DNA from: a virus
Taxonomy: Duplodnaviria > Caudoviricetes
IMG/VR virus record: IMGVR_UViG_2739367553_000005
Coordinates: 21,071 to 85,070 of that record
Direction: 5' to 3' (one strand)
DNA: 64,000 bases
The position numbers and the translations under genes were made by a program. Under the pieces are notes generated by a model that was not told the origin of the DNA, searched no databases, and saw only the letters and a program-made list of their open reading frames with translations. Each line of letters opens with the position of its first letter. The stretch's first letter is position 1. This document shows positions 1 to 62,325 of the stretch, piece after piece.

Positions 1-43
1 CTACGATAAGTTCCGGTTTTACATAATTCATAATCTGTTCCAT
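1..43 (-). CDS. Phage holin, N-terminus only (runs off the window)
   Basis: Manual translation MEQIMNYVKPELIV with an AAAAGGAG RBS; typical start of Clostridia phage holins; lysis-cassette position. Confidence 0.7.
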   Translation of the reverse strand, partial: MEQIMNYVKPELIV

Positions 44-47
44 AATA

Positions 48-269
48 TTAATCTCCTTTTTCCTCTAAGTCCGCTATGCGGTGATTTGCAACTTTCATCT
101 GCTCTTCCAGTCTGAAAGTGCGCTCAATTACAGTATTATGCTTGTCAACTTTCTTTTCCAACTGCCCTATACGATAATTTGTCAGTTTGGAAGAAGCCAC
201 TATTCCTGCAAAAGTACCTATTCCACTTCCTGCCAATCCTATAAGAGCCACCATGATTTCCATAGGCAT
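48..269 (-). CDS. Small membrane-anchored coiled-coil protein of the lysis cassette
   Basis: Hydrophobic N-terminus (IMVALIGLAGSGIGTFAGIVAS) followed by a charged helix; directly upstream of the holin. Confidence 0.7.
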   Translation of the reverse strand: MPMEIMVALIGLAGSGIGTFAGIVASSKLTNYRIGQLEKKVDKHNTVIERTFRLEEQMKVANHRIADLEEKGD

Positions 270-288
270 ATATCCACCTCACGCTTTC

Positions 289-420
289 CTAAATTTTAGT
301 TGCCAGGATCAGCTGCTTTTCTGCATCAGTGATCCACCCCTTTATAACCGCATTTGCCAGCATGGTAACCGTAAGCTTACCCATACCACCGTCGTATAAC
401 CACATTAACATTTCAAACAT
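289..420 (-). CDS. XkdX-like small phage protein, 43 aa (not in ORF track)
   Basis: Manual translation MFEMLMWLYDGGMGKLTVTMLANAVIKGWITDAEKQLILATKI; GGAGG RBS; AVxKGWIT motif typical of XkdX. Confidence 0.7.
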   Translation of the reverse strand: MFEMLMWLYDGGMGKLTVTMLANAVIKGWITDAEKQLILATKI

Positions 421-422
421 AC

Positions 423-848
423 TTACACCTCCAGACTTGATAAAACTAAAGTACCAACGGTTGTTTTTAAAGATTCATTATCCTTTTTAATTTCTGCATT
501 CTCTGCTTCCAAAGCTGCAACTCGTTCCTGTAAATCTGGTGTCTTAAAATAGGCAATTATTACATCCGCCTTTCTATCCGTTACTCCGTCCTCATCCTTA
601 CCGATTACATAATCAGACTCTTCTGTTAATCTTTTCGCATATACTAAATCTTCACGAGCCCAATCAGTGTCTCCGGACAAGCCGATCTGAGCGATTTCAC
701 CATTAGCTTTCAAGAGAGCCTTGACGCTATCAAAGGAAGCCGATCCTTTCTGAAAGGTAACTGTACCCCCGGTTTCTCCCAATTTTATCCCGTCAGGTAC
801 CAGATCAAAAGCCTGATCCCCAAACTTAATTTTTTCGATATTATTCAT
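423..848 (-). CDS. Hypothetical phage protein following the tail fibre region
   Basis: 141-aa ORF with C-terminal coiled coil; position before the XkdX-like gene. Confidence 0.75.
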   Translation of the reverse strand: MNNIEKIKFGDQAFDLVPDGIKLGETGGTVTFQKGSASFDSVKALLKANGEIAQIGLSGDTDWAREDLVYAKRLTEESDYVIGKDEDGVTDRKADVIIAYFKTPDLQERVAALEAENAEIKKDNESLKTTVGTLVLSSLEV

Positions 849-917
849 TATTCAATCCTTTCCGCCTCTTAGGCATAAAAATAAGCCCCTACAGGAGCCA
901 TTGGTTTACATTAAACT

Positions 918-1184
918 TTACAATGCATCGAACCGATCAGCCTTCTCCTTGATCTGATCGAATTCTTCTTTTCCCATGAAATAGATCGACTGGCTTTCAA
1001 TACGTTCCTCCACCTCCTGGGCAGTGCCAGTCATGTCTATTCCTTCGATCTTCAGCTTACTAATAACACTCAGTTCTTTTCGGCAGAGGTTAATCAGCAG
1101 CACCTCTTTATTAGTTGGATCCGTCTTTTCTGTTAGCTGATTGATTATTGCTTCCAGTAGTTTTTCACAAACAAATTGTATCAT
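918..1184 (-). CDS. Hypothetical protein
   Basis: ORF 918-1226; likely ATG at 1184 after a GAAAGG RBS. Confidence 0.55.
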   Translation of the reverse strand: MIQFVCEKLLEAIINQLTEKTDPTNKEVLLINLCRKELSVISKLKIEGIDMTGTAQEVEERIESQSIYFMGKEEFDQIKEKADRFDAL

Positions 1185-1401
1185 GGTGACCTTTCTCCCG
1201 GCTTGGGGTAATAAAATAAGCCCCAATAAGGGACTGTTTTACAAGTTTAATAAGATAGTAATACTGGTATTATTTTATCTCATTCATATCAAGTGTACTA
1301 ATTTTATTATATTATCCTAGAAGATTTACATTTAATTACAGCAAGGTTGGTATAAATTTTAGTTCTTACAAACATACTATTAGTTAAAAAGGAGTCTAAT
1401 T

Positions 1402-2268
1402 ATGCTTACTATAGAATTAATCATGCAAACAATCGGTAATGATATAAAAACAAAAACCGCACAAATAATACTAAGCAATTTATTTAAATCTGATGATACT
1501 GAAAAATTAATAACGAAAGCAATAAATGAAATATGCAACCAAGTACAAAAAATCATTGATGATGCATTTATGAGAGAATACATTGCAAAAACTGACAGCA
1601 TTTCATCTAGAATTTCATCTTATATACTAACTAACGATACAGAAATGTTGGATGAATTATATTCTGATGCTTCTGATATGGTACATCAGTTAAAACGTTT
1701 TAATTCATTAGAAGGTATTATAGCATTTAATTCGATTTGCAGTCTCCATTTAATCGTTGTGAAAGCATTAGCTGAAAAAAAGAGCAAATATTACAAAGAT
1801 CTTACAAGACTTGGCAAAGAATATGCTCAAATGCTGATTAGTAAGACACCTATAATAAATGAAATTTTTAGTGAAAGCGTAAGTCATTCACGACCTTGCG
1901 ATATATCTAAACCGCATCAATCTTTCAATGGTTATTCGATCAAACAGGATGGTTTTAAGGAAAAATATATCTTAAAACTATACACCTATTTCAATGATTA
2001 TTGGAAAGATAATGCTATGATATATTCTGAATCAGAAATGGAGATTCCTCAATTTGATGATCAAAGACGTTTAAATTTTCTTATTCATAGTAACGGAGGA
2101 GCCTTTTTGGAGGAGGCAACTAAATACCCTCAAAACAAAAAAATATTTGATGATTTTAATGTCAAAGCAAGATCTGAGCGCGATTCATATCTTAATATGC
2201 GATTAGACATTTCGAACAAATTAATTAATACAATCACACAAGCATGTGAACAGTATAAAAACTTATAA
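1402..2268 (+). CDS. AT-rich moron protein, 288 aa, helical N-terminus, function unknown
   Basis: AAAAGGAG RBS; opposite strand to the late operon. Confidence 0.8.
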   Translation: MLTIELIMQTIGNDIKTKTAQIILSNLFKSDDTEKLITKAINEICNQVQKIIDDAFMREYIAKTDSISSRISSYILTNDTEMLDELYSDASDMVHQLKRFNSLEGIIAFNSICSLHLIVVKALAEKKSKYYKDLTRLGKEYAQMLISKTPIINEIFSESVSHSRPCDISKPHQSFNGYSIKQDGFKEKYILKLYTYFNDYWKDNAMIYSESEMEIPQFDDQRRLNFLIHSNGGAFLEEATKYPQNKKIFDDFNVKARSERDSYLNMRLDISNKLINTITQACEQYKNL

Positions 2269-2460
2269 AAGTGTAAGTTGTTCTAAATCCTGATACTGAC
2301 ACTAATCATTAAGAAAGTCGGCTCTGGCTGAAGCTTATCGGTCAGAGCATTCGTTAAGAAAAGAATTTCCTCACAATTATTTGTATCTTTATTACATTTC
2401 TTTTTAATCTAAACCATAAGGTCTTCAATTGTCTGATCTAATTTTACTTTAATCATTTTT

Positions 2461-2510
2461 CCTCTTTCTACTGTTTTACGGACAGTTCCGGTTTTACGTT
2501 AAATAGCAAT
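2461..2510 (+). repeat. Repeat site A (~50 bp, ends in core TAAATAGCAAT)
   Basis: cctctttctactgttttacggacagttccggttttacgttaaatagcaat; aligns with sites B and C. Confidence 0.9.
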
Positions 2511-2610
2511 ATTCAACTCCTTTTGATTTTCTTTTAATTGTATGCTGCTTTGCTTGTACCGTTTGTCTCTATAATAAATGCCTTTTCCACCTGCTTTCTA
2601 TGTTTAAAAA

Positions 2611-2649
2611 CAACAAAGAACCTGATTATCAAAAGACTTTCAGGTTCTT
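2611..2649 (-). terminator. Intrinsic terminator downstream of the 186-aa gene
   Basis: AAGAACCTGA / TCAGGTTCTT inverted repeat with a T-rich tail on the minus strand. Confidence 0.6.
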
Positions 2650-2691
2650 AAATCAACAATAAAGTATTGCAGTTAAATGTTATTTATAATA

Positions 2692-3252
2692 TTAAACTAA
2701 AGTTACCGCCAAATTTTCAATAATTAATCCAGTAAATTCTTCTGCAGCATTCATTACTTGTTCTCTAAATAGTGGTATAACTCTGTCTCGTACAAAATGT
2801 CCAGGATTATCATTATGATCAGGATCGACTTGTATTTCTAATTTGACCTGTAAATTCTTACTTGGTTCTGCCACGAACCTTGCCTTCATAATTCCTTTAG
2901 GATGTACACTGCCCCATTCATTATTAAGAAAAGTACATTTCCCAAGTGCACACGCCCAATATTCTCCATGAGTTGTAGATGTATATTGATAAGAAATATC
3001 TAAATCAAAATACCAAAGATAGTATTTGTTTTCAATTAATATCTTTTTAACGTAGCCATTGTTGGCTACGAATTTCTCTATATGGCCTTCTCCTTTTGCC
3101 ATTATTTTATTTCCATTTCCAAACCTATCAAGATTTTCCTTATACGTTGTAAGGTCTTTTTTCACTGAAGCATTCAATATTTTACTATTCATAAAATCTA
3201 CAAATTCTTTAGTAACTACCTTTTCTTCTGTTCTTTCAAGAACTTCATTCAT
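2692..3252 (-). CDS. Hypothetical cassette-borne protein, 186 aa
   Basis: GGAGG RBS, own terminator, lies between repeat sites A and B. Confidence 0.8.
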   Translation of the reverse strand: MNEVLERTEEKVVTKEFVDFMNSKILNASVKKDLTTYKENLDRFGNGNKIMAKGEGHIEKFVANNGYVKKILIENKYYLWYFDLDISYQYTSTTHGEYWACALGKCTFLNNEWGSVHPKGIMKARFVAEPSKNLQVKLEIQVDPDHNDNPGHFVRDRVIPLFREQVMNAAEEFTGLIIENLAVTLV

Positions 3253-3354
3253 TTCAATACCTCCATTTATTATGATTACTTTTCTTTATTATTTGTTTTT
3301 TTTCGAAATTAATTCATAAAATCCATTTTGATTATTTTTTCCATAATATTTTTT

Positions 3355-3403
3355 CCTCTTTCTGCTGTTTTCGGACAGCTCCGGCTCTCAACTAAATAGC
3401 AAT
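3355..3403 (+). repeat. Repeat site B
   Basis: cctctttctgctgttttcggacagctccggctctcaactaaatagcaat. Confidence 0.9.
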
Positions 3404-3614
3404 TCTTTTTCTTTCGAAATTCTTTCGGCGATTGCCTTGCAGATAACCACCACAATTGTTAATAGGATTGTGGTTCCACCTACCATATGTACTTTTGCTT
3501 TCTGTTTTACTTTTGAACAATAAATAAAATTTATTGGATCTCCTCCCAAATAATATTTGTTATTTTCCTACAATCTGATAAAATATTATTATCAAATTGA
3601 AAGGTCGTGATTTT

Positions 3615-4442
3615 ATGTTAGATGGATTCGACAAATTAGCAGAAGGAGCCGGAAAAGCTCTGAAAAACATTCCAGAACTTTATGATGACGCTCTAAAACC
3701 TTCCGCGCAAGAATCAGGAAAACTTTTGGCTCGAATACCTCGTGCAATCAATGCTGTCTTTGCTGATCTTGATAAATGGATACTAAACAAAGAATACAGC
3801 ATTGAAGAAACAAAAAAATTATTAAGTTATAAGCTTGAAAACATCTCACCCGAAAAAATCGTAACACCAGAACCATATGTTGCAATTCCAGCAATACAAG
3901 CAATTTCTTATTCAATGGATAGTAAAGAATTAAGAAACTTATATGCTAATCTTCTTGCTAAATCAATGAATATTGATACAAAAGCTTATGTTCATCCGTC
4001 ATTTGTTGAGATAATTAAACAGATGTCTCCTATTGATGCCCGAATCTTAAACGAAATGCCTTCCAATAAAACTCTTCCATATGTAAATTTGAGTTCGACA
4101 GAGTACGACTCTGAGGTGAAAACAATTAATTTAAATTTTATAAGTCGTAGATCATTTCCTTATGTTACATACATTGATTTTACAGATTATGAAACAGTAA
4201 ATTTATCTTTAGGCAATCTGTCTCGTCTCGGATTAACTGAAACACGATTTGCACAACAAGAACCAGTTCCACAAAAAATCAAAAAATCTCCTCATTATAA
4301 TCTATGTAAAACAGAATTAGAAACATTTTTGACTAATTCAAAATGGCGTTACGAAGAGCAACTCCTTTTTCTTTGTTTAACCAGCTTTGGAATGGGTTTT
4401 TATAATGTATGCATTGAATCATTTAATCCAAATATGTTATGA
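3615..4442 (+). CDS. DUF4393 / Abi-alpha family protein (candidate abortive infection)
   Basis: Motifs P..YVAIPAIQAISYSMDSKELRNLYANLLAKSM and VHPSFVEIIKQMSPIDA typical of DUF4393; C-terminal LTSFGMGFYNVC. Confidence 0.75.
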   Translation: MLDGFDKLAEGAGKALKNIPELYDDALKPSAQESGKLLARIPRAINAVFADLDKWILNKEYSIEETKKLLSYKLENISPEKIVTPEPYVAIPAIQAISYSMDSKELRNLYANLLAKSMNIDTKAYVHPSFVEIIKQMSPIDARILNEMPSNKTLPYVNLSSTEYDSEVKTINLNFISRRSFPYVTYIDFTDYETVNLSLGNLSRLGLTETRFAQQEPVPQKIKKSPHYNLCKTELETFLTNSKWRYEEQLLFLCLTSFGMGFYNVCIESFNPNML

Positions 4443-4582
4443 TCGCTATTAAAGTATTTGATAATTGATGATTTATAATTACTCAAATAGCAAAACTGTA
4501 TTCTTGCTTTCCTCTCTCTATTTCCATATTATGGAATCACAGGTGGCTGAGCACCAAGTACAAAAGAAAGGAGGATTTAAAA

Positions 4583-5082
4583 ATGTCTTTAGCCTTAGCT
4601 TTTTATAATCATCACGGTATAATTATGTGCGCCGACAAACTAATAACCGCTACGTACAATAGATCAGGTATTAATTATGAGATACATCAATCATCTACCG
4701 AAGATAAATTATTTCTGATTGAAAATCAATATGGACTATCATATGCTGGTACGGCTTCTATAGACAATGGTCCCATATCCGCAGTAATAGAAAAATAAAT
4801 TGAACTTAATCCCTTAGGTGATGAAAATCCTTTGACACAGCGGGGATTACTTTTTCTGTGGAAAACGATTATGTTTCTCACTTAATAAGTTCCGATCTTG
4901 TTCATTTTGATTATACTAAATTCACCATGCAAGATTCTATTGATTTTTTGCGTTTCTTAGTTAGTACAGTTTCTGGATTAATGCGTTTCGGACAATGCCT
5001 ACAAACTGTAGGCGATGAATGTAACATTTTAGCAATATATCCTAACGAAGCGTACTGGGTGCAGCATTCAATTTTGCATTAA
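4583..5082 (+). pseudogene. Disrupted Ntn-hydrolase/proteasome-like gene (two fragments in different frames)
   Basis: MSLALAFYNHHGIIMCADKLIT...GLSYAGTASI stops at 4798; C-terminal part (QDSIDFLRFLVST...TVGDECNILAI) resumes at 4858 in another frame. Confidence 0.5.
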
Positions 5083-5236
5083 CTGCTTTGTCTTTCATTG
5101 GTTCAGTTAGATTTTCTGTGTTGCAATTAACATCATTAAATATTTTTTCATAACCTAATGGCCGCCCTTGAGTACTTTTTTTGAGGACGGCTGATCTTCT
5201 TTTTAATTCAGCGTACATTCTTTTTTTAATCCACAT
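5042..5236 (-). CDS. Small basic ORF starting immediately after repeat site C
   Basis: 64-aa ORF whose ATG lies just beyond the site C arm; overlaps the convergent pseudogene end. Confidence 0.3.
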   Translation of the reverse strand: MWIKKRMYAELKRRSAVLKKSTQGRPLGYEKIFNDVNCNTENLTEPMKDKAVNAKLNAAPSTLR

Positions 5237-5242
5237 ATTTAT

Positions 5243-5295
5243 TTTCTTTCTGCTGTTTCACGGACAGCTCCGTTTCTACGCTAAATAGCAATTTA
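5243..5295 (+). repeat. Repeat site C, including the 15-bp CTAAATAGCAATTTA (5281-5295)
   Basis: tttctttctgctgtttcacggacagctccgtttctacgctaaatagcaattta. Confidence 0.9.
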
Positions 5296-5571
5296 GATAA
5301 CAAGTTTAATTCGGCGGATATGATATTAAGATCTTATACTATACCGTCTGCTACATATGCATCTGGTAAAGGTGCTATACAAATTAACGGATTCACAGCT
5401 GTGCCAAGCGGATACGCTGTTTATGGCAGCAGTGTTGATACTGGTCAGTCTGCTACGATGATAGCCGATCTTAACACAGTATCAGGGAGCAATGCGTATC
5501 TATCTTATTATTCTTCCGCGCAAGTAACTACTGCAATTATAGTAAGACTGATATTGATAAAAATACCTTAA
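5281..5571 (+). other. Silent alternative C-terminal cassette for the tail fibre (96 codons, LNSNLDNKFNSADMILRSY...LILIKIP)
   Basis: Open frame begins inside the repeat with the same LNSNL peptide found in the fibre; no RBS; converges on the expressed C-terminus with 9 bp between stop codons. Confidence 0.8.
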
Positions 5572-5580
5572 ATGATCATT

Positions 5581-6528
5581 TTAGAAATAAACATCCTGTA
5601 GTGTGACCTTATCTCCTGCGTTCAAAGCTGTTGCCAATAACAAATACATTGCATTATCATGTATGCTTACATAGCCATACTTTCCAGTATCATATTGCAT
5701 ATATTTATAAAACCCACCACCACTGGGGATAACGTCTGCCGGAAGATCACAAAGCTTAATTTCAGTGGTGGAAGCAGCGTACCATTCATTTAACCCCCAC
5801 ATGGAAAATCGTTTTATTTGACCATATTTTGTAAAAATCACTTTAGCCGAAGCATCTGAATTAATTGTGAACTTCGTCTCATAAGTTTTATAACTTAAAT
5901 TGCTATTTAGTACTTTAACTACCGCGGTCAAATTTTCGCCAATTTCTAGATCTTCACCCATGCCGATCCGCTCCCAGAGGTTATGCACAAATGCTGACGT
6001 TGGGATTTTATTCTGATCATTTGCATCCATGTTGGTAAGCATATTCTTCAGCAGAGCATTCTGATCCAGGTTCATTGTAACTGCTATGGACTTTGATATC
6101 TTCCCAAGTGCAGAAGCAATAGCCTCCCCAGCTATGATGTTGGCCAGTTCCGTGGCCTGCTCAAAGAGGGTGTTTATATCAACACTCCCATCAGTCCCCA
6201 CCTTAATCCCATTGCTTCCCTTTACCAATCCCAAGGTGTTCTGTGTAGCTGTCTTTGCACTTAAACTACCGTCAGCACTTACCTCCATTGTTGTGCCGTC
6301 TGGCTTTACCGTTCCGACACTGTTTGCCGTGGCTTTGCTTGTTCCCAAAGCCGAAACCTGCCAATAATCTAAATTGGTAGGCAATGTCCCAATAGGAGGC
6401 TTAGTGTGAACCACATAACTACTCCCATCATAGGATACTAAATTTAATATTTCATACTGCTTATTAGGATTGTATTCTTCCGAAGGTAGCATTCCTATCG
6501 TGCCATATACAACTTCTGTCTCATCCAT
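5581..6528 (-). CDS. Tail fibre / receptor-binding protein with switchable C-terminus
   Basis: Fibre-type repeats (KATANSVGTVKPDG, ATQNTLGLVKGSNG); LNSNL junction at 5896-5910; tail-module position. Confidence 0.8.
   Translation of the reverse strand: MDETEVVYGTIGMLPSEEYNPNKQYEILNLVSYDGSSYVVHTKPPIGTLPTNLDYWQVSALGTSKATANSVGTVKPDGTTMEVSADGSLSAKTATQNTLGLVKGSNGIKVGTDGSVDINTLFEQATELANIIAGEAIASALGKISKSIAVTMNLDQNALLKNMLTNMDANDQNKIPTSAFVHNLWERIGMGEDLEIGENLTAVVKVLNSNLSYKTYETKFTINSDASAKVIFTKYGQIKRFSMWGLNEWYAASTTEIKLCDLPADVIPSGGGFYKYMQYDTGKYGYVSIHDNAMYLLLATALNAGDKVTLQDVYF
5896..5910 (-). repeat. Repeat site D, inverted relative to A-C
   Basis: Minus strand reads CTAAATAGCAATTTA, identical to 5281-5295 on the plus strand. 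Confidence 0.9.
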
Positions 6529-7643
6529 TATTGCAGAATCTCCTTTCCTATAAACTTACCGGCTTCCAGCCTGAAACTGATTCCTTTAGCCGCTGTCCTG
6601 CTCTTAAGTTGCATTTTACTCATATCAACATAAAATTGTGGGATTGATATCTTAGCCGCTTGATCAACCTGCGCTTTTAAAATTTGTACCTGTTGCCAGT
6701 ACCACTTTGCATTGTCCTCAGTATCTTCCGGTACCACTCCACCTTCTACATATCGTTTTGCCATTAATGCACTGTTCTGTGCTGCAGCTGCGCTTTGACC
6801 GGCCGCTGTCTGGCTTACTCCTGCCTGTGCCGCTTTATCTCTTGCCACCTGCTCACTGGCACCTGCTGCTGTTGCTTTCTGAGTTGTGGTTAAAACATCT
6901 GCCGCTGTCTGATTCGCTGCTGCAGTTGCCGCGGCAGCCTTTGTGGTAGCTATTCCCGCCTGGGTGGTTGATACTACCGCACTATCGGCAGCCTGCTGAG
7001 CATTCTGGCCAGAAGTCGTGGCATCATCTTTGGTTTGTTCATAATAAAACTTTGCACAATCGTTCTCGCTTCCTGGAAAATCTTGATCCCCGAAGACATA
7101 GCGCTTTGTAAACTTCTGATAATTGAGTGCGGCATCACGAGCCGACTGTGCATCAAGCATATACTGGCGAAATTCAGTCTGTATGGCAGCGTCAAGTTTC
7201 TCCATTGTAACGGATCCGTTCACAATCATGGCAGTTATGGTACGGTCATTGATCTGCATTGATACAGTAGCCGTGCTGTCCACGGAATAGACAAACCGGG
7301 TAAGGTCAATTATCTTTTGGGTGCCGTCTGCTAATGTAAGTACGAGTTGATTTTGATCGTTAATATCAAAGTTTAACACAACCTTTTCAATGTCCAGGTC
7401 ATAAGTCTTTACTGATCCATTTTGATAGGTTATTGTAAATATCCCATTATCATCAACTGACACATCTCTTACCAGGGCATTGATCTGCGATTTATCGGCT
7501 TTATTTGCGTCCAGCTGTACGGTTCTGTTATCCAGTTCCTTTACTCCGTTTTCTGTATGTATTAAATTAGTACGATTCAGCGCTGTTTTTTGCGATGGTA
7601 GATTCTGCCAATCTGTAACTGTATAAAATGGTTGCAAAGCCAT
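6528..7643 (-). CDS. Tail fibre / baseplate-associated protein with Ala-rich helical repeats
   Basis: 371 aa; duplicated NAKWY/CAKFY motifs and an Ala/Gln-rich stalk; coupled to the fibre gene (TAATG overlap). Confidence 0.7.
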   Translation of the reverse strand: MALQPFYTVTDWQNLPSQKTALNRTNLIHTENGVKELDNRTVQLDANKADKSQINALVRDVSVDDNGIFTITYQNGSVKTYDLDIEKVVLNFDINDQNQLVLTLADGTQKIIDLTRFVYSVDSTATVSMQINDRTITAMIVNGSVTMEKLDAAIQTEFRQYMLDAQSARDAALNYQKFTKRYVFGDQDFPGSENDCAKFYYEQTKDDATTSGQNAQQAADSAVVSTTQAGIATTKAAAATAAANQTAADVLTTTQKATAAGASEQVARDKAAQAGVSQTAAGQSAAAAQNSALMAKRYVEGGVVPEDTEDNAKWYWQQVQILKAQVDQAAKISIPQFYVDMSKMQLKSRTAAKGISFRLEAGKFIGKEILQ

Positions 7644-7906
7644 TAGCCTTCACCCTCTTTCTTTTCAGGCTTATTACTGATTTTAGTTTTCTGTTCAGGC
7701 GGGTTTACCCAATCAGCCGCCGAGTAAAGTCCCTTCAATTTTTCCGGTTTCTCCGGTTCTATAATCTCTCCCGGCATTCCGGAATCTATCACCTGCGCAA
7801 TGGTAGCTACCTGCTTCGCATTTTGGATTCCGGTTGTAGTGACGGCATTCAGCATGTACTTCATCTGCAACACCTGTTCTTCCGTGTATGTGATTATCTT
7901 TTTCAT
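7643..7906 (-). CDS. Small hypothetical tail-region protein
   Basis: ATG at 7906 after an AAAGGAGG RBS. Confidence 0.65.
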   Translation of the reverse strand: MKKIITYTEEQVLQMKYMLNAVTTTGIQNAKQVATIAQVIDSGMPGEIIEPEKPEKLKGLYSAADWVNPPEQKTKISNKPEKKEGEG

Positions 7907-7972
7907 AGCTCCTCCTTTCGGACATAGAAAAAACGCCCGAAATCGGACGCTCATTCTAAATTCACCACATTA

Positions 7973-8608
7973 TTAAATTTCGTATTCAGGATATACCGCT
8001 TCCCAAACTTCACGATGATAGGTGTTGACTTCACCATAATTTGCATCGAAAATCTTCTTCACTTCATATCCCATATCCATTCCAGTACGCTTTAATTTTC
8101 GCCAATCAAAAGTTTTCCAGTCAACTCCATTTAGAGCGGCAACCCGTTTAATGGAATACCAGTCCTTGCTACGATCTAATTCCAATCGAAGCTGTTCCTT
8201 TTGCTTTTCTGACTGTATAAGTTCTTCCAATGCCTCAATATATGTTTGAGGTCGTTTCGGCTTAATAGCTTCCTCCAACTCGTAGAAACGTTTTACATAT
8301 TTTGCGGTAAATATAATTCCCTTTTCTCCAGTTGACTTATTTGCCAGAAAATCGCACCCTAGTCTGGTTGTTTCGTAGCAAGGCCGTTCTTCTCCCTTTG
8401 CGTCAATGTAGGTGGATTTCTTAAAATAATCAACCACGGACATTTGTCCTTCGTTCAATATCTGGATATAACCTTTCCTATCTTTGCGGCCTTCTAATTT
8501 CTTTAAAAGATCTGCATGAGGAACGTCCATCATCTCTGCAATTTCCAAAGTGGTAATTGTCTGTGTTTTCTTAATTTCTTCTGTAGTAAAAATTTCGGCT
8601 CTGCCCAT
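7973..8608 (-). CDS. Rha-family phage regulatory protein
   Basis: TITTLEIAEMM...H..LL, YF.KSTY.DAKGEERPCY..TRLGCDFLANK.TGEKG..FTAKYVKRF. Confidence 0.85.
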   Translation of the reverse strand: MGRAEIFTTEEIKKTQTITTLEIAEMMDVPHADLLKKLEGRKDRKGYIQILNEGQMSVVDYFKKSTYIDAKGEERPCYETTRLGCDFLANKSTGEKGIIFTAKYVKRFYELEEAIKPKRPQTYIEALEELIQSEKQKEQLRLELDRSKDWYSIKRVAALNGVDWKTFDWRKLKRTGMDMGYEVKKIFDANYGEVNTYHREVWEAVYPEYEI

Positions 8609-8844
8609 CTAAGCGTACCCTCCTAAATTTTCACTTCCGACTCTACATTCCGCAGAGCCAGTAAAATTATTTCGGGGCGTTTCCGGAGCATACCCGGAAA
8701 GGAGTTCCACCCCTTCATATTATTATATTAAGCTTTGCTGAAATAAGTTGTCGAATTCATAAAAAATTTTATATCAAATACTATCATAAAATTTTAAGAT
8801 AAAGAAAAGAACGTCCAGGTTTGGGCGCTCTTTTCTTTGATTAA

Positions 8845-9963
8845 TTAATCTTCAATCAATTTAAAATTAGTAATATTCTTTAAATGCCAAGTTTTTTTAC
8901 TCATATCTAGAGTACCTTTCATCTCAATCTTTATACCATCTCTATGTGCATCGCAAGCATGCTTATAATCTTCTTCCCCCAACTCAACTTTAATTGTCCT
9001 AAATTTATTGTCTAGACAAGTCAATATGGATATTTCCCTCTTATATCTCTCTTTGTCAATTCCTTCTTTCTTTAAAGTTTTTATATAACCGTCAACTAAA
9101 ATGTCTTTTGTTTCATCAACCATTTTATATCTTTTTGATATTTCGTTTAAAACAAAAAAATGGTTTCTTTTGATATTTACTTGTTCAATAATACCTGCTT
9201 TTTTTGTTATCGCAGATGCATATCTTATTTTCGTATCTATTTCAACATCAGAATCCTCTGGATTTAACTTTAATAAAGCATCGCACATATTCGCAGTAAT
9301 TCCAGTCATATATGCATTATTTATTAACCCATCAATATCAATTTTATTTTCAACAATATCATTAACCTGGTTTATTGCATTGCCTATCCTTCTTACTATT
9401 TTATGCTCTATTGAAGAATCTAGGTTACACTCATTTAAAGACATCTGCTCATTCTCTTCATCAACTACTTTAATATCAATATTAATAACAAAACTACCTT
9501 TTTCAGTTTGCCCTAATTTAAAACTATCAAGGAATTCCTTAGAATTATTAGTAGTTCTTAAACAAACTGGTGATTTATTTTGTTCTGCGCAAGCTGAATA
9601 TAAAATAAGTTCTTTTATTCCATCCAAACAGGAACTTGCATAACCAAGTGGCAATTCACCTTCTTCTGAAAACTTAGATATTATTCTAAATTCTAGAGTA
9701 TCATAAAAAGAAGTAATTATTTCTTTTATAATCTCATCAATATCCTTTTTATATAAAAATGATAAGCGCTCTAAAGTATTAGGAAGAACTTTATAAAAAT
9801 CCAAAAATTTCTCATTTGCTGGTATTGCAATAGTCTGATCTCCTTCATGAAAGACCATCATTTTCTTATTAGGAAAATTATAATCTCTAATCCAGTTACA
9901 CAGTAATAAATACTTCTCAAAAGAGTTTGCTGTAATTTTATATAGTTTTTCATGTTTATCCAT
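8845..9963 (-). CDS. 372-aa partner of the DUF4365 protein, function unknown
   Basis: AT-rich; start overlaps the upstream stop; hairpin terminator at ~8800-8840. Confidence 0.8.
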   Translation of the reverse strand: MDKHEKLYKITANSFEKYLLLCNWIRDYNFPNKKMMVFHEGDQTIAIPANEKFLDFYKVLPNTLERLSFLYKKDIDEIIKEIITSFYDTLEFRIISKFSEEGELPLGYASSCLDGIKELILYSACAEQNKSPVCLRTTNNSKEFLDSFKLGQTEKGSFVINIDIKVVDEENEQMSLNECNLDSSIEHKIVRRIGNAINQVNDIVENKIDIDGLINNAYMTGITANMCDALLKLNPEDSDVEIDTKIRYASAITKKAGIIEQVNIKRNHFFVLNEISKRYKMVDETKDILVDGYIKTLKKEGIDKERYKREISILTCLDNKFRTIKVELGEEDYKHACDAHRDGIKIEMKGTLDMSKKTWHLKNITNFKLIED

Positions 9964-10469
9964 TACAACACCCCCCTTTTCACCATATCCATTAATCTAA
10001 TTAATTCTACAGCTGTTAGCATTTGAGTTTCTGGAATTTTTATTCTAACCTTTTGACCATTTTTAGTATCAGGTAATCCTTTTAAAGAACACCAGTAAGC
10101 ACACTTTTCTAACTTCATTTCATTACATGACACTTGAACCCAATCATTTCGATTTTTAGGCAGAACAAATAAAATAAGTATTCTTGGAGTACCAATATTT
10201 AGCTGTATTAGATCTTTGTAATTCTTAACTTCTAAATCATATATTATAATCCCTGATTTAATTTTAGCATTAACTGTAGACTTCAGTTGAATATCAATAC
10301 CAAAGCCTGTTTGCCAATGCCTCTTTCTATCTGTACTATATTCAATATCATTAATTCTAGCATCTAAACCATAATCTGATTTGTACTCTTGAAATGATAA
10401 TCCTGCATATGCTGAAATTGCCTGCGCATACGCAACACTCAATTGTTCCTTTGTATGCTCCTCAGTCAC
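9963..10469 (-). CDS. DUF4365 family PD-(D/E)XK nuclease-like protein
   Basis: KEQLSVAY...DYGLDARI...IDIQLKST...YDLEVKNYKDL...PRILILFVLP...CAYWCSLKG. Confidence 0.8.
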   Translation of the reverse strand: MTEEHTKEQLSVAYAQAISAYAGLSFQEYKSDYGLDARINDIEYSTDRKRHWQTGFGIDIQLKSTVNAKIKSGIIIYDLEVKNYKDLIQLNIGTPRILILFVLPKNRNDWVQVSCNEMKLEKCAYWCSLKGLPDTKNGQKVRIKIPETQMLTAVELIRLMDMVKRGVL

Positions 10470-10688
10470 TTTTCCACCCCCGAATATTATACAATTTATA
10501 ATATATTAAAATAATGAGTATTTCAATAAGTTAAATTATAAATTATGGGGTTTTTTATCATATTAGAACATATGTTCTTAAATGTCAATATATGTAAACA
10601 AAAAATGAGTATTTAATAGAAATTCATTATATCTAATTTATTCGTAAAAAGGAGCAGGCGTTTTTCCTGCTCCTTTAAATGGATCTAT

Positions 10689-11105
10689 TTAATTATTAGC
10701 CACCGTCTCCACAACAACCTGACCATCTTTTACCCAGGCACCATCAGAACCAACTGTGTAACCGTCTGGGGTTGTGGTGTCGTGGAGCATAGCCCAATCA
10801 TCGCCAAAATAATAATACTTACCATCTGCCGGATCATGAAACCAAGTGCTTTTCAGTAAGAATCCATCTTCGCTACAATAATACCAGTCATATTTGTGAT
10901 TTTGAACCCATTGACTCTGGGCAAGGCTTCCATCTTGCTTATAGTATACCCATCTCTCCTGTCCACTGCTATCAGTCCTTGAACTGAATGGCATATCGCG
11001 AATACTGTCTGTCCATGGAATAGATGCTGCATTTTGTGCAAACACACCACTTGACATAATTAACATTATTGAAAGAGTTAGTAAAATGGTTACAATCTTT
11101 TTCAT
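10689..11105 (-). CDS. Secreted protein with cell-wall/choline-binding repeats
   Basis: Signal peptide; WVYYKQDG, WYYCSEDG, YYYFGDDWAM, TTPDGYTVGSDGAWV repeats. Confidence 0.85.
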   Translation of the reverse strand: MKKIVTILLTLSIMLIMSSGVFAQNAASIPWTDSIRDMPFSSRTDSSGQERWVYYKQDGSLAQSQWVQNHKYDWYYCSEDGFLLKSTWFHDPADGKYYYFGDDWAMLHDTTTPDGYTVGSDGAWVKDGQVVVETVANN

Positions 11106-11178
11106 TCCGCACCTCCAAATAATTATATGTAAATAGTACCATTATTTGTGTACGCTGTAAATAGCTTGTACCACTATA

Positions 11179-13155
11179 CTAATCCCAGTCAACATTTCCT
11201 CCCATATTTTGAATTGAATACCTTATTGCATCTAATCTGTTATATACCTGTTTTAACATTCTCAAAACTCCCCACGATCCAGCCCAATCATCGCCTTCAA
11301 AATAATAATCCTGCCGACAATAAACTCTTGCTGTTTTAATATCACCAGTCCCTTTAAGTTCTATAGCTTCACGCATTAGGTCACTTCCAATTGTCATTCG
11401 TGCCAGCTCTCCAGACGGTCCACTTGTAACAATGTCTGTAATATTAACATACCCGTTAGCAGACATGAGAGTTCCGGTTCCATTAGCACTTACCTGATAG
11501 TCTCCTAATCGCACAACCGAATTATTTGCCACGAACAAATTTGCTCCTATGTTTATAGATCCACCAACCACTCTACCGCTGAACGTAGCATTTCCATCAC
11601 CGTCCAGCTGAAAATTATTACTGTTAACAATAAGCCGGTTTCCGGATATCGTTACCTTATCGCTTTCGACTGATAACTGTGCTGATACATCACCTTTACT
11701 TACTTTCAATGATATCTGCTGCGCTGTCTGTTCAAATCGAGAATTCGTATCATTTTTAAGATTTGTCACCGAAGCAACAATCCCATCCGCTCTGATATTC
11801 AGTGACGCTTCTGCATCTTTCGCCCTGGTCACTTCCGCGAGAATCTGATCCGCTGTCACCTTAAACTGTGCTTCCGTGTATTCTTTCAAATCTGTTACCC
11901 GGACAGAAACTTCCTCCACGGATTTTTTAATAACAGCTGTCTTTCCCTCTAACTGAATTATCTGATCTCCAAGTCCAAAACTTTGTTCCTGCTCAATATT
12001 ACCTTTCGCAACATAAGTATCCGTCATTCCCTGTATGCCTTTCAAGGTTCGCTGAAGGCAAAAGGTTTCAATCACATCGTCCGTAGTATAGCATATGATC
12101 CCGTCACCAACCTCTACCCACGGCAGAGCCGGTCCAACGATTTGACAGGGTCTGTACAATCTTCCTGAAATATAATCATAAACTATAGCAGCAATCGAAA
12201 GGAGTTCTTGTTCCGATTTTCCATAGACCAGGTAATTTCCCTGAATTACATAACAGTTACTTCCCGGGCCATAGGACGCGCCTACGTCTCCCTCTTCCTG
12301 CCGGATCTGTACCTTATCAATCGGATATACCACATAATCTTCATAATGTGTCTCTGTTTGTTTGTAGTAGGATAATGTTTCCGCATTGGTCATCTCTGAT
12401 GGAAATAATTCGTCATCAGGGTATAAGTTTTCAGACGGGAACAGACCGGAAGTACCCAAATACTTATATGTAAGCCGGCCAGTCTTATCGAAATTCCCAA
12501 AGCAACCGTTTAACTCACAGATAGCCATTAAAACCTTACGGCCGTCTAGCTGCTCCGGTTCAATAGTCTTTGTTATCTGCATATCGTCCAGGGGTAATTC
12601 CGCTATGATCTGTGTAACACCCACATGATTACAAAGCGAATCCCTGAACAATTTCAATGTCAGGGGAAAGGTTAATCCCTGGTACCAGTCTGCCACATCA
12701 ATATCAAATTTCATCATGCGATCATAGGCTACAATCTTTTTTCGTCGTCTGTCAACCTGCTCCCGGACAAAGCTATCTACTCTATAGATCCCCAAGGCCA
12801 TTTCATAGCCACCAATCTCAACAGTTGCCATAAATTCTTTCCCAGTTAGATCCATTAATACATCCGCCACCGTTACTTCAAACATGGAAGCACAGCACTC
12901 GCCAAAAGTTAAATTCTGGCTTGAGCATAGACTCTCTGTTATTGTCACGGATTCGGATATTATCTGGCTATTATCAATGACATACACTGGCTCCTGATCA
13001 ACAGGAAATAAATCGTCGGAGGGAAACAGGTTATCTTCCGGATAAATCATCTTTATCTCTTCATCAAAGAAACGTAGTTTTATATGCCGTCGTGTGGCAG
13101 AACCCATATTATCTGCCCGAAACAATTCTTTTATTTCATCTGGGATATTCAGCAC
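11179..13155 (-). CDS. Phage minor tail / tail-tip (Tal-like) structural protein
   Basis: 658 aa; siphovirus-type N-terminus, coiled-coil FEQTAQQISLKVSKG region, beta-rich C-terminus. Confidence 0.75.
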   Translation of the reverse strand: MLNIPDEIKELFRADNMGSATRRHIKLRFFDEEIKMIYPEDNLFPSDDLFPVDQEPVYVIDNSQIISESVTITESLCSSQNLTFGECCASMFEVTVADVLMDLTGKEFMATVEIGGYEMALGIYRVDSFVREQVDRRRKKIVAYDRMMKFDIDVADWYQGLTFPLTLKLFRDSLCNHVGVTQIIAELPLDDMQITKTIEPEQLDGRKVLMAICELNGCFGNFDKTGRLTYKYLGTSGLFPSENLYPDDELFPSEMTNAETLSYYKQTETHYEDYVVYPIDKVQIRQEEGDVGASYGPGSNCYVIQGNYLVYGKSEQELLSIAAIVYDYISGRLYRPCQIVGPALPWVEVGDGIICYTTDDVIETFCLQRTLKGIQGMTDTYVAKGNIEQEQSFGLGDQIIQLEGKTAVIKKSVEEVSVRVTDLKEYTEAQFKVTADQILAEVTRAKDAEASLNIRADGIVASVTNLKNDTNSRFEQTAQQISLKVSKGDVSAQLSVESDKVTISGNRLIVNSNNFQLDGDGNATFSGRVVGGSINIGANLFVANNSVVRLGDYQVSANGTGTLMSANGYVNITDIVTSGPSGELARMTIGSDLMREAIELKGTGDIKTARVYCRQDYYFEGDDWAGSWGVLRMLKQVYNRLDAIRYSIQNMGGNVDWD

Positions 13156-13167
13156 TTCACAACCTCC

Positions 13168-13566
13168 TTAATACTCAGTTATCGTTATCTTAATCGGCTT
13201 GTAGAGTATATCTTTTTTCTTCTCATTAACATTCACAATCTCATAGGGAATATCTGAAATATAAAACGCCCCCGATTTATACGAGGACGTGTTTGGATTC
13301 CAATATTCAATTTGACATTTTACCCTGTTTCCATGTGGTACAAAGGCATTCAGCTTATCAACATCTTTTAGCCATAAGTGTGTGGTGGAAAATTCCATAG
13401 AGGTGGCAGTATGAGGTAAGGCATTACGATGAAGTTCTCCGTTTCCATCTCGGTAGGGATCCAGATCCATTATCTGATCCGGCGTGCACTTATATGATTC
13501 CAGTGCAATTAATTCATTTGGAAACACTGTTCCATTTATTTTTAATAGCCAGCCTTCAAACGCCAT
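13168..13566 (-). CDS. Distal tail-like phage protein
   Basis: MAFEGWLLKING...DPYRDGNGELHRNALPH; GGAGG RBS; precedes the tail-tip gene. Confidence 0.65.
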   Translation of the reverse strand: MAFEGWLLKINGTVFPNELIALESYKCTPDQIMDLDPYRDGNGELHRNALPHTATSMEFSTTHLWLKDVDKLNAFVPHGNRVKCQIEYWNPNTSSYKSGAFYISDIPYEIVNVNEKKKDILYKPIKITITEY

Positions 13567-13655
13567 TCGCCCACCTCCAGACATACAAAAAAGCGCCATC
13601 TCTACGACAACGCTTTCTTTTCATTCTATACCACAATATCATTTTAACATATTAG

Positions 13656-13673
13656 ATGTGGGAAATGTGGGAA
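13656..13673 (-). promoter_or_regulatory. Tandem 9-bp repeat (TTCCCACAT x2), putative late-promoter activator site
   Basis: Perfect tandem repeat followed on the minus strand by -10-like TGTTAAAAT / TATAGAAT and the tail genes. Confidence 0.5.
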
Positions 13674-13679
13674 TGTTAT

Positions 13680-14612: not shown

Positions 14613-14695
14613 TTTAGTACTCCAATATTATTTTAAATGCTAAATATTAAGATCAAACAACATGATTAAACAATAAAACACCTTTATTTTTTTGA

Positions 14696-15865: not shown

Positions 15866-15889
15866 TTTTATACTTCCTTAAATAAGATT

Positions 15890-17094: not shown

Positions 17095-17194
17095 ATTTTA
17101 TCCCCCGTATATGATATAAGATTATTTTATCATATTTTGATAGTTTTGCAAACCAGAAAAATACAAACAATTAATTGATCTCAAGTTGATTTAA

Positions 17195-17644: not shown

Positions 17645-17651
17645 ATCCTCC

Positions 17652-19367: not shown

Positions 19368-19459
19368 AGAAAAAGAGCCTCCTTTCCCTTGTGTTTAACA
19401 AAGGTCCGAAGGCTCACTAGGCTCTGGTTTAAATCAGACATATTACTAATTATTTAAAC

Positions 19460-19786: not shown

Positions 19787-19800
19787 TCGACTTTACATAT

Positions 19801-35020: not shown

Positions 35021-35404
35021 CTATATTTTAAAATGATTAACGCTACTAAGTGATTTATTATGAATATTAAAAATCTGCCTTACACTATACCCCATTTTGT
35101 CTGCAATAACGTCCCATGTATAACCTCTTATGTACCGATATTTCATCAATCGCTTTTCCTGTTCATCTTCCATATTCTCAATTTTATCATATAGTTCCAG
35201 GCAAATTTTCACCTTCTGGTATCGGTAGCAAATAACTTTCTGTTTCAGATCATTAAGAGCATCTACATATTTATCGTCGTAACCATAAGAAGCCATCTCT
35301 TTCTGTATTATCTGGATATCTTCATCCGCATCAGAAATAGCAGCATTGAATGCAACCAGATTTTTTAATTGATCCATTGTCTTATTTTTCATTAGGCTAT
35401 ACAC
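35021..35404 (-). CDS. DUF1492/ArpU-like transcriptional regulator
   Basis: KYRYIRGYTWDVIADKMGYSVRQIFNIHNKSL. Confidence 0.75.
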   Translation of the reverse strand: MYSLMKNKTMDQLKNLVAFNAAISDADEDIQIIQKEMASYGYDDKYVDALNDLKQKVICYRYQKVKICLELYDKIENMEDEQEKRLMKYRYIRGYTWDVIADKMGYSVRQIFNIHNKSLSSVNHFKI

Positions 35405-36438
35405 CTCTCTCTTATGTTTCTTAATGTGTCAGGAGTTGATTGAGCATAATAAGCTGCCGTTACCGAAGGGCTTCCATGACCCATAATCTCCTGAATTGTT
35501 CCAATGTCCACACCTTTGTTTTTGAGTGTCATTCCGAGCGTCTTCCGGATCTTATGTGGGTATACCCTACTCTTTACCATGGCGCGCTTTCCGATAGTTT
35601 TAAGAATGCTCCTAATTCCGGAAGTAGTCATTTGATCATGCGGCGCCTTACACTGAGGAAACATAAAAGGGCTATCGTCATTCCGGGAGTCCATATATTT
35701 GCGGTAATAATATCTTGCATCATCATCTAAAAATATCGGCCGGTATTTGTCGCTCTTCTCACCCAAGATCATGATATCACCGGTATTCCAATCTATCTGG
35801 TCAAGAGTTATCTCTACCAGCTCCCCTACTCTGGCACCGGTGCTGCGAAGCACTTCTATTAAAGCACGTTCCCGGTAACTCTTACAGGCGTCTTTCATTT
35901 TTGTCATCTCTTCAGGCTTAAAATAATCAATCGGCTTTTTGATAGCTTTGAGTGGATCCGTTGCCTCGACCGGATTTTCTCCAATCAATTTTTCCTTTCG
36001 CATCCAAGTGAAGAAAGCAGAGAGGAAACGTCTTTCATTATTTACGGTTATGGCCTGATTCTTCTTGCCACTGGCATTTATATTCCGCTTCTCATACCAG
36101 GACAGGTAATAGCTGATATCGGATTCCTCTATCCTATCCAGCGGCTTGTCAATCAAGGTAATCAGGCGTTTAACTGAACTAAGATATGCTTGCTTAGTAT
36201 TATCTTTTATTTTTTTCTTCACTATAAAAAGCTGAACGATGTACTTATTCTTCTGATCCGTGTCATTCTGATATTCTACCGGAAGAGTGGTTATTTCTTC
36301 CATGTTGACATTGACAAATTCCTTTATGATTACCTGATGAAGAATGTCTAAAACATCTTTAGTCACATGCTCTGCCATGGCAACAATAATGTTGTTAATT
36401 ACCTGCGCTTTTATGGTTTGTCCATTCATAATATGCAA
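35392..36438 (-). CDS. Second tyrosine recombinase (XerD-like)
   Basis: STGARVGEL, VYPHKIRKT, IQEIMGHGSPSVTAAYY (R-H-R-H-Y catalytic set). Confidence 0.92.
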   Translation of the reverse strand: MHIMNGQTIKAQVINNIIVAMAEHVTKDVLDILHQVIIKEFVNVNMEEITTLPVEYQNDTDQKNKYIVQLFIVKKKIKDNTKQAYLSSVKRLITLIDKPLDRIEESDISYYLSWYEKRNINASGKKNQAITVNNERRFLSAFFTWMRKEKLIGENPVEATDPLKAIKKPIDYFKPEEMTKMKDACKSYRERALIEVLRSTGARVGELVEITLDQIDWNTGDIMILGEKSDKYRPIFLDDDARYYYRKYMDSRNDDSPFMFPQCKAPHDQMTTSGIRSILKTIGKRAMVKSRVYPHKIRKTLGMTLKNKGVDIGTIQEIMGHGSPSVTAAYYAQSTPDTLRNIRERCIA

Positions 36439-60896: not shown

Positions 60897-61062
60897 TTAA
60901 ATTACAAAACCGCCCGGTGCTACCAACACCGAACGGCTTCACATAGATTATACCGACAGTGCCGATACATACTATTCTTCAAATACATTGTATCACCCTG
61001 GCACTAAACTGTAAACCGGTATAGTGTTATTTTTATACTCTTTTTCAGGAAAGGATGATTTT

Positions 61063-62325
61063 ATGTCGTTAGTAAAATGTCCAGAATGCCAAGGACAAAT
61101 AAGCACACAGGCAACTACATGCCCTCACTGTGGGTACCCAATTCTCCCAGTTGAAAATAATAAAAGCAAACGAGGCAGACCAAAGAAATCAGATCAACAA
61201 TCATTAATGCGTTTACCCAACGGCTATGGTACCATAAAAGCATTACCAGGTAATCGCCGTCGACCCTTTGCAGCAATGGTCAATCCTAAACTTACACTTA
61301 ATGAAGATACTGGGAAAAGCTATTATACATATGATTTTCTAGGATCTTTTCCGGAAAAGATAGATGCTTATAAAGCAATTTTAAGCTATCAGGAGAATCC
61401 ATATGATTTGAAAAATGACCTGACTATCAAAGAATTATACGATGTATGGTTACCCAAATACATAGATGATAATAACTTAGATGATAATAGGCGTAAAGCC
61501 TATGATGCAATTTTCAAATATTGCGAGCCAGTTTATGATATTAAAGTTACAAATTTCATGCCAGCTATGATTGAAGATCTTATAAAGAATGCGTACAAAA
61601 CTGGAGATAGGGGAAATGAAGCAGGTAAAAGAATAGCTGCTACTTCCACAGTAAAAAGCAACATGAAGATATTATTTAATCTTCTTTTTGATTACGCTGT
61701 CTTTCTCCGGATAGTATCCGATAACTACGCACGTACCTTTACAATAAACACCAGTAAGGAATCTAAGCAAACGTCAAGAGTAGGACGGCCATACACCAAT
61801 GAGGAGTTAGCAATTCTATGGGATAATATTGGAGATATTTTTATTGACATGACAATAGTTCAATGCTACTCTGGTTGGCGTCCGGGTGAAGTTATAACTC
61901 TCTCTGTAAATAATATCGATCTGAAAAACAGAACATATACTGGTGGAATTAAAACTGAAAATGGAATTAATAGAATAGTCCCGATCCACCCAAAAGTTTT
62001 ACCTATAATACAGAAGTACTATAATGAAGCCAATGATGTAGGACGTCCTATGCTGTTTGGACGTACAAAACAATTTCATGGTTCTTATAGATATATTGAA
62101 AATTCCTTTAGACATTCGTTGTTGAAAAAAGAAGAAGAACTCGGAATCTCGGGACATGTATTACACGATGGCAGACATACCTTCTCAACAATGGCAAAGA
62201 AATATGGAATTAATGAATTTGCAAGGAAAAAAATTATGGGTCATGCCATTAAAGATTTAACTGATAGGGTTTATACTCACATGGATATTGAATGGTTCCG
62301 AAATGAAATTGAGAAGATTTTATAG
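61063..62325 (+). CDS. int: Prophage tyrosine integrase with N-terminal Zn ribbon
   Basis: CPEC...CPHC; YSGWRPGE, HDGRHTF, IMGH, TDRVYTH. Confidence 0.92.
   Translation: MSLVKCPECQGQISTQATTCPHCGYPILPVENNKSKRGRPKKSDQQSLMRLPNGYGTIKALPGNRRRPFAAMVNPKLTLNEDTGKSYYTYDFLGSFPEKIDAYKAILSYQENPYDLKNDLTIKELYDVWLPKYIDDNNLDDNRRKAYDAIFKYCEPVYDIKVTNFMPAMIEDLIKNAYKTGDRGNEAGKRIAATSTVKSNMKILFNLLFDYAVFLRIVSDNYARTFTINTSKESKQTSRVGRPYTNEELAILWDNIGDIFIDMTIVQCYSGWRPGEVITLSVNNIDLKNRTYTGGIKTENGINRIVPIHPKVLPIIQKYYNEANDVGRPMLFGRTKQFHGSYRYIENSFRHSLLKKEEELGISGHVLHDGRHTFSTMAKKYGINEFARKKIMGHAIKDLTDRVYTHMDIEWFRNEIEKIL

Follow-up and report, generated by a model that had tools for sequence, protein, structure and literature searches.

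A putative invertible tail-fibre tip module in a prophage of Lacrimispora or a close relative

Introduction

Can a short inverted repeat within a tail-fibre gene allow a prophage to exchange the receptor-binding tip of its fibre when no recombinase gene lies beside the repeat? This question is raised by positions 5281-5910 of a 64,000-nucleotide stretch of viral DNA (Duplodnaviria; Caudoviricetes; IMG/VR record IMGVR_UViG_2739367553_000005, positions 21,071 to 85,070), which is referred to here as the window and corresponds to G000:C16:21291-85290, that is, to part of contig C16 in a source genome of 5.63 Mb (G000). The repeat lies at that end of a large prophage where the fibre and lysis genes are. 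The host belongs to Lacrimispora or a close relative, a gut and silage Clostridium, and one related locus comes from Lacrimispora xylanisolvens. An earlier note, made from the letters of the window, had described the repeat and proposed that inversion exchanges the C-terminus of the fibre. On sequence comparison, the locus is a real and conserved invertible tail-fibre tip module, with switching in this strain putative, and it probably serves to switch the receptor-binding tip of the prophage tail fibre by site-specific DNA inversion.

The distribution of the site was surveyed in 49 genomes of the host genus and, as an outgroup, in 200 genomes from 132 other genera of the same order. Counts of the 14-bp core of the repeat (the 14-mer) were compared with counts of the reversed 14-mer as a control.

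Organization of the switch

The inverted repeat, CTAAATAGCAATTTA, is complementary at 15 of 15 positions with 600 nt between its arms (Table 1), and it is the sole perfect inverted repeat of at least 15 nt within window positions 3000-9000. Palindromic arms, TAAAT and ATTTA, flank an asymmetric AGCA centre, as the sequence itself shows. On the minus strand, the copy encodes LNSNL in frame within an open reading frame (ORF) of 315 amino acids (aa) at 5581..6528, and from LNSNL onwards the active C-terminus counts 109 residues. On the plus strand, the copy starts a run of 96 stop-free codons (5281-5568, stop at 5569-5571). This frame has its first in-frame ATG at 5320 and contains no start codon upstream of the site as far as the preceding stop. 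The two reading directions converge, with 9 bp separating the stops at 5569-5571 and 5581-5583. Every point of the description in the earlier note is borne out. The note had also called the locus a shufflon; the label is too strong, as the locus is one invertible segment with two intact cassettes. Beyond this intact pair there are two solo sites without cassettes and a partly decayed pair 10 kb away, outside the window, and related phages carry two to three site pairs each.

The protein evidence is consistent with a tail fibre. The ORF at 5581..6528 and the gene upstream of it both have weak PHROG matches to tail-fibre or structural proteins, and the upstream type of gene accompanies the switch in 12 of 23 loci. 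An ESM Atlas model of the expressed cassette resembles the C-terminal domains of predicted tail-fibre proteins (TM 0.74-0.78). For the silent tip, an ESM Atlas feature search returned only weak viral or tail-fibre leads with scores of 0.86-0.91, and the cassette begins with LNSNLDNKFNSAD, as do cassettes that are expressed in other phages.

Table 1. Coordinates of the switch, of further copies of its site and of candidate recombinases; positions refer to the window unless a locus is named
Feature	Position	Strand	Basis or remarks
Expression-side crossover site (LNSNL)	5896..5910	-	Conserved core 14-mer at 5896-5909; homology to related fibres and metagenome contigs stops here
Silent-side crossover site, inverted copy	5281..5295	+	Opens a start-less frame; 100% match of silage contig starts at 5282
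Constant N-terminal region of the fibre, 206 aa	5911..6528	-	Homology; weak PHROG matches
Currently expressed C-terminal cassette, 104 residues after LNSNL, and stop	5581..5895	-	ORF reading
Silent alternative cassette, 91 codons after LNSNL, and stop; convergent with the active one	5296..5571	+	Frame reading
Upstream tail-fibre or tail protein gene, 371 aa, same operon	6528..7643	-	PHROG tail-fibre matches
Conserved left arm outside the invertible segment	5235..5280	+	On the minus strand, hairpin CGGAGCTGTCCG, then ribosome-binding site and ATG
Solo direct copy C, left arm and site	3346..3406	+	TAAATAGCAATT kept, TTTA end lost
Solo direct copy D, left arm and site	2455..2513	+	TAAATAGCAAT kept
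Second switch, TAAATAGCAATTTAA	L001 (G000:C8:59000-78000) 9508-9522 and 10213-10227	+ and -	Within 9495-10609
Third pair of sites	L002 (G000:C16:3000-22000) 13237-14489	both	About 3.8-5 kb before the window start
Xer-like tyrosine recombinase, 348 aa, phage-internal, candidate invertase	35392..36438	-	Pfam and NCBIfam matches
Tyrosine recombinase, 433 aa, far end of the phage-gene run	61024..62325	+	Alternative candidate

Distribution of the crossover site

The 14-mer, TAAATAGCAATTTA, occurs in five exact copies in the source genome, and the reversed control does not occur. Of these five, four are arranged as two convergent pairs, each lying within a prophage tail-fibre gene. The second pair lies in a prophage on contig C8, where the inverted 14-mers are 690 nt apart inside a fibre with an unrelated N-terminus. 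This fibre (9863..10609 of the locus, 248 aa) encodes LNSNL at its site and faces a tip-like, start-less frame of 115 codons ending at 9854; the only recombinase seen in the C8 prophage is a 373-aa gene 36 kb off. The fifth copy (C16:16236) was considered as a chance match and rejected as such, since a near-copy (12 of 14 bases) faces it 1.24 kb away; the two make up a third, partly decayed pair, in which the exact plus-strand 14-mer opens only 16 codons. The minus-strand near-copy of that pair shares its frame with an open stretch of 164 codons between stops, which by eye appears rich in beta-strands; a 218-codon frame between the sites appears, again by eye, membrane-anchored.

Across the 49 genomes of the genus, 105 exact 14-mers were counted against 10 for the control. 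A hand count from the resulting table gave 27 convergent pairs with a spacing of 269-2022 bp, mostly 500-710 bp, and no divergent pair. The 200 genomes of other genera contained 28 single matches against 25 for the control and no site pairs. Silent-side sites tend to be followed by open frames: at 27 of 31 such sites in the loci examined, at least 60 stop-free codons follow, compared with 16% of random positions. AGC makes up 16% of the serine codons in structural genes here, so that the invariant AAT-AGC-AAT-TTA argues for a constraint on the DNA beyond that on the protein.

Some fibres carry tandem sites 21 bp apart (G004:C7:944980-945014, G033:C35:1092-1126, G028:C1:187924-187958 and L020 at about 10560-10640). 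These encode a seven-residue repeat, such as NVNSNLD, immediately before the tip and, being in frame, would make several crossover points available in those fibres.

Signs of recombination at the site in related phages

DNA similarity to the constant region was the sole criterion by which eight related loci were picked out. The constant part is 70-85% identical in DNA to same-genus prophages and 75-90% identical in protein to IMG/VR proviruses, and the similarity of related fibres to the window ends at the site (query positions 888-898). At a distance of 390-650 bp there is another, short match, to the silent-side site and its flank. The 14-mer is perfect in six of the eight loci despite the divergence of the constant region. 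In six of the eight, LNSNL or a near variant heads a start-less frame of 41-117 codons at the far site; the remaining two had no partner site within the short stretch examined. Where the site varies, the variation can be mirrored, with TAAATAGCGATTTA at both sites of L007 and TAAATAGTGATTTA at both sites of L025. These variants sit in the asymmetric AGCA, as expected of an overlap region in which partner sites must match.

Inversion is also indicated by cassettes that occupy opposite slots in related phages. Genomes G014 and G031 are collinear in the constant part (79%) and in the downstream flank (71%). A cassette designated Y lies inverted between the two; it is silent in G014 and is active, as part of the fibre, in G031 and in G022 (98% aa identity, 97% DNA identity). 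The silent cassette of G026 is likewise the active one in two IMG/VR proviruses (88% aa identity), again inverted between collinear flanks, and the constant part of these proviruses is 90% identical to that of the window.

Exchange between different fibre genes is also evident. Silage metagenome contigs match window positions 5282-5909 (628 bp) at 100% and then diverge on both sides into 30-mers identical to the borders of both sites of another fibre gene, found in G028. This other gene, whose N-terminus is only 43 aa long, carries a different module between its sites in G028. A complete two-tip module has thus been transferred between fibre genes that are unrelated, both breaks falling at the 14-mers. 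A silent cassette is common to one fibre of the window type and one short-type fibre at 95% DNA identity, with homology stopping at the site, and at least four N-terminal contexts without significant mutual similarity share the identical site.

Recurrence of the arrangement, homology breaks at the sites, mirrored variants and cassettes found in either slot together support the proposal of the earlier note that inversion would swap the C-terminal tip of the fibre. That note had also proposed a search of other genomes for the alternative cassette fused to the same N-terminus; such fusions exist for related cassettes (Y and that of G026) and were not found for the window's own silent cassette.

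In the large phages of G014 and G031, orphan convergent cassette pairs without a fibre N-terminus are present (L014 5711-6361 and 15854-16501; L016 5385-5999). They lie 6-17 kb from the expressed fibre, one of them directly after the terminase genes, a slot that in the window is instead occupied by DprA and FRG-domain genes (13680-17094). The orphan pairs may be a remote store of tips that is reachable by long inversions.

Candidate recombinases

Tyrosine recombinases are the best-supported class of enzyme for the putative switch. The phage-internal Xer-like gene of the window is intact, overlaps a small sigma-region-4-like gene (35021-35404) and holds a syntenic internal position in related large phages of G031, G018 and G035. 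In two other genomes an enzyme of this type is embedded among the sites: G006 encodes a 348-aa Xer-like protein (L018 10414..11460) between two site pairs, next to a fibre whose constant part is 51% identical to that of the window, and G011 encodes a 339-aa Xer-like protein (L025 5385..6404) within the stretch that the two mirrored variant sites enclose. In the source genome, both have their best homologue in the Xer-like gene of the window (27-28% identity over the full length), with E values of 1e-34 to 1e-39 compared with 1e-16 to 1e-20 for the next best.

The second tyrosine recombinase of the window, of 433 aa, is probably the prophage integrase. That role was considered for the 348-aa protein and rejected, as its gene is internal and syntenic, has phage genes on both sides and is accompanied by the separate terminal recombinase. 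The chances that the Xer-like protein is the enzyme at this locus are about even; otherwise the integrase or a host enzyme would act in trans. Its gene is absent from many loci with site pairs, so that its role as the invertase is putative.

Proposed mechanism and alternative explanations

In the proposed mechanism, the LNSNL codons that end the constant part would double as the recombination site, and the inverted copy 600 bp away would open the promoter-less, start-less frame of a second, convergent tip. Recombination between the sites would flip 5296-5895, so that the constant part would run in frame into the stored tip and the old tip would be parked in the silent slot. A tyrosine recombinase would catalyse the inversion, with the central AGCA, where partner sites co-vary, as the predicted overlap region. 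The same site may let different prophages of the genus swap cassettes.

Several observations weigh against a working switch. Both comparisons with an inverted cassette involve phages that differ in the partner cassette as well, so that neither is a simple flip of an identical module. The silent cassette of the window has no homologue among 1.84 billion representative proteins searched exhaustively with HMMER, except the record of its own 83-aa ORF, and thus has never been observed as part of a fibre. Longer proteins, searched by word index, gave no homologue, exact junction patterns for both cassettes had no match in JGI metagenomes or IMG/VR, and in a comparison with 79 other cassettes the sequence likeness was confined to the first 14 or so residues. 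Logan contigs from the source sample and three metagenomes do not contain the inverted joint, which weighs neither for nor against flipping, contigs being blind to minority orientations. Some silent slots have decayed: 4 of 31 have fewer than 60 codons, and the frame at L045 stops after 7.

The recombinase evidence is also incomplete. No recombinase adjoins the locus in the window, and 8 of 17 genomes with exact pairs lack a homologue of the candidate at an E value of 1e-30 or better. Clustering of ORFs within about 10 kb of 23 loci found only structural genes to be widely shared and no recombinase family. In a 41-kb provirus rated 100% complete and carrying a perfect pair, only the terminal tyrosine recombinase was found. 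The 14 conserved bp are, moreover, short for a full tyrosine-recombinase site.

These points bear on an alternative, judged unlikely, in which the site is a frozen or evolutionary module boundary. The 14-mer would then be a conserved linker, tips would be exchanged by rare recombination during co-infection, and the locus would have no useful flip rate here because its cognate recombinase is absent or unexpressed, leaving the silent cassette as a stored relic. Such a history would suit the many loci without any recombinase in reach, the differing partner cassettes and the swaps between phage backbones, broken at the sites, that are directly seen. Yet all 27 pairs are convergent, which is needed for inversion and not for replacement, and 27 of the 31 silent frames are open in DNA of 37% G+C; that these frames are kept open implies occasional expression. 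Both sites of the window are perfect and its candidate recombinase is intact, and the co-variation of partner cores fits a site-specific overlap region rather than a protein linker.

A switch of the Gin, Cin or Min type, driven in trans by a small serine invertase encoded elsewhere in the genome, is highly improbable. Its layout would be that of the Mu G and P1 C segments, with a constant N-terminus, convergent C-termini and short inverted repeats, and one small serine recombinase does exist in the source genome. That 204-aa gene, the only one of its kind there, is on contig C1 between a metal-transporting ATPase and a metal regulator, a non-phage context, and a serine invertase was rejected on these grounds together with the lack of a linked one and the tyrosine nature of the embedded recombinases at related loci. 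No Resolvase-family gene was found on the prophage contigs C16 and C8, and near related loci there is none except large serine recombinases in G009. A small adjacent recombinase of about 190 aa is thus missing, and so are 26-bp sites such as gix and hix: 14 bp are conserved here, and the cassette-side flanks vary freely. Finally, a chance inverted repeat beside a chance open frame, for which it can be said that a lone 15-bp match within 6 kb of A+T-rich DNA is not impossible, is refuted by the genome- and genus-wide counts against controls, the second locus and the open-frame statistics.

Relation to known inversion systems

Switches that invert fibre tips are already known. The earlier note had cited Mu, P1 and p15B as precedents, which are fitting for how switching would work and not for the enzyme. 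The G segment of Mu with Gin, the C segment of P1 with Cin, e14 with Pin and p15B with Min use a small adjacent serine invertase, 26-bp sites and a Fis-dependent enhancer. The putative switch described here resembles them as a host-range switch by inversion that exchanges fibre C-termini, and differs in having neither a linked serine invertase nor 26-bp sites at the locus.

The shufflon of R64 is a plasmid pilus system in which the tyrosine recombinase Rci, encoded by the adjacent rci, acts on pilV at seven sfx sites that delimit four segments. As in R64, an adhesin-like protein has a constant N-terminus that is joined to alternative C-termini through short sites that are conserved on one side; the silent-side sites here carry a one-sided conserved arm. 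Unlike R64, the locus belongs to a phage fibre and not to a plasmid pilus.

Of the systems described so far, the Rin shufflon of Bifidobacterium breve and B. longum prophages (Mavrich et al. 2018, PMC6109161) is the closest. In that study inversions were inferred by comparison of prophages, with every break at the sites, and tyrosine-family recombinases were implicated (PMC6109161). Both systems have a constant N-terminal part of a receptor-binding protein in frame with start-less C-terminal cassettes at a short asymmetric repeat, and inversions with breakpoints at the sites are seen here in related phages. They differ in host phylum, in site sequence and in site length, which is 11 bp for Rin (PMC6109161) and 14 bp here. 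Rin has several tandem cassettes, whereas a single convergent pair is present here. The Rin recombinase is encoded directly beside the cassettes; in the window the nearest tyrosine recombinase gene is 29.5 kb off, many loci lack one, and only in G006 and G011 is such a gene beside or inside the cassettes. In contrast to Rin, the identical site is common to at least four unrelated fibre backbones across the genus, and exchange of cassettes and modules between phages is demonstrable.

Two further systems bear on an enzyme that acts at a distance. Bifidophages integrated at tRNA-Met contain an orphan locus in which a segment of about 500 bp, made up of a small gene together with the 3'-terminal part of the adjacent gene, is inverted at an 8-bp repeat without a flanking recombinase, and a trans-acting invertase was proposed by the authors (PMC6109161). 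The likeness to the present locus lies in inversion between related prophages at a short repeat without a flanking recombinase; the bifidophage locus was compared in two phages and has no assigned gene function, whereas a fibre gene and 27 loci are involved here. In Clostridioides difficile, the tyrosine recombinase RecV inverts several unlinked switches in trans (PMC5903667). RecV acts on promoter or regulatory switches and not on coding cassettes, yet it is a precedent for a remote or host enzyme, so that a trans-acting enzyme, as also proposed for the orphan bifidophage locus, has precedent.

Neither a tblastn match to the fibre nor a meaningful megablast match to window positions 1-20000 turned up in a collection of 50,697 sequenced phage records. 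A literature search found no paper on a comparable switch in Lacrimispora or other Lachnospiraceae.

Direct repeats and neighbouring genes

The conserved left arm adjoins the silent-side site in at least nine other genomes. In the window, the left arm and the core TAAATAGCAAT form a unit of about 45 bp that occurs three times in direct orientation, at the silent-side site (5235-5295) and at the two solo copies, from which the terminal TTTA has been lost. The minus strand of each unit gives a hairpin, then a ribosome-binding site and an ATG, and double units resembling these are present in G026 and G029. The units bracket a 186-aa gene of unknown family (2692-3252, minus strand), an abortive-infection gene of the Abi_alpha family (3597-4442, plus strand; Pfam E value 2e-46) and a gene split as 4472-4798 and 4825-5082 that is a single intact frame of 247 codons in G024. 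Compared with an integron platform, the three direct units do bracket cargo, no integrase is adjacent, and the arm also reads as a 5' leader. The array could reflect the capture of cargo at the switch site or a duplicated gene leader.

Leader-like elements recur on the far side of this region. Two leaders with a terminator-like hairpin and a ribosome-binding site (CAGTCCCTTATTGGGGCTTATTTT; window 860-960 and 1195-1275) precede the genes at 423-848 and 918-1226, a leader containing CAGTCCCTTATTGGGGCTTATTTT directly follows the silent-side site in the C8 prophage, and a degenerate site-like stretch lies at about 1262-1275. The leader copies, the C8 arrangement and the site-like stretch suggest that the 4 kb at 1260-5280 were inserted at an old junction.

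Elsewhere in the window, an AbiJ N-terminal domain is fused to a protein kinase domain (33695-34945, plus strand) among phage DNA methylase genes; this is probably a defence gene carried by the prophage. A T7-like large terminase (17652-19367; NCBIfam E value 6.5e-15) and a small sigma-region-4-like protein (17195-17644) are encoded directly upstream of the distal-tail and fibre genes, with portal and capsid genes located past the lysis genes, in L002. Either the gene order is unusual for a prophage or two elements lie in tandem.

Biological significance

The tips of tail fibres set which bacteria a phage infects, and stored spare tips let a temperate phage hedge its bets. The bifidophage study left the question of a trans-acting invertase open (PMC6109161). 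A 14-bp site with well-defined partners allows a direct test of whether the Xer-like protein, an integrase or a host enzyme is the invertase in trans.

A broader idea, offered tentatively, is that the 14-bp site serves as a common currency of the host genus, with one recombination system, encoded remotely in the phage or by the host, serving many unrelated prophages. If this idea is correct, the site would drive both the switching of tips within a phage and the trade of single tips or two-tip modules between co-resident phages, the 100% identical module in a foreign fibre gene being an example, and it would also capture non-fibre cargo beside the silent slot, as in the array that holds the Abi_alpha gene. 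Receptor-binding cassettes would then form a shared, integron-like pool and not a private switch. A genus-wide crossover site would explain the free movement of receptor-binding domains among unrelated phages of gut and silage Clostridia.

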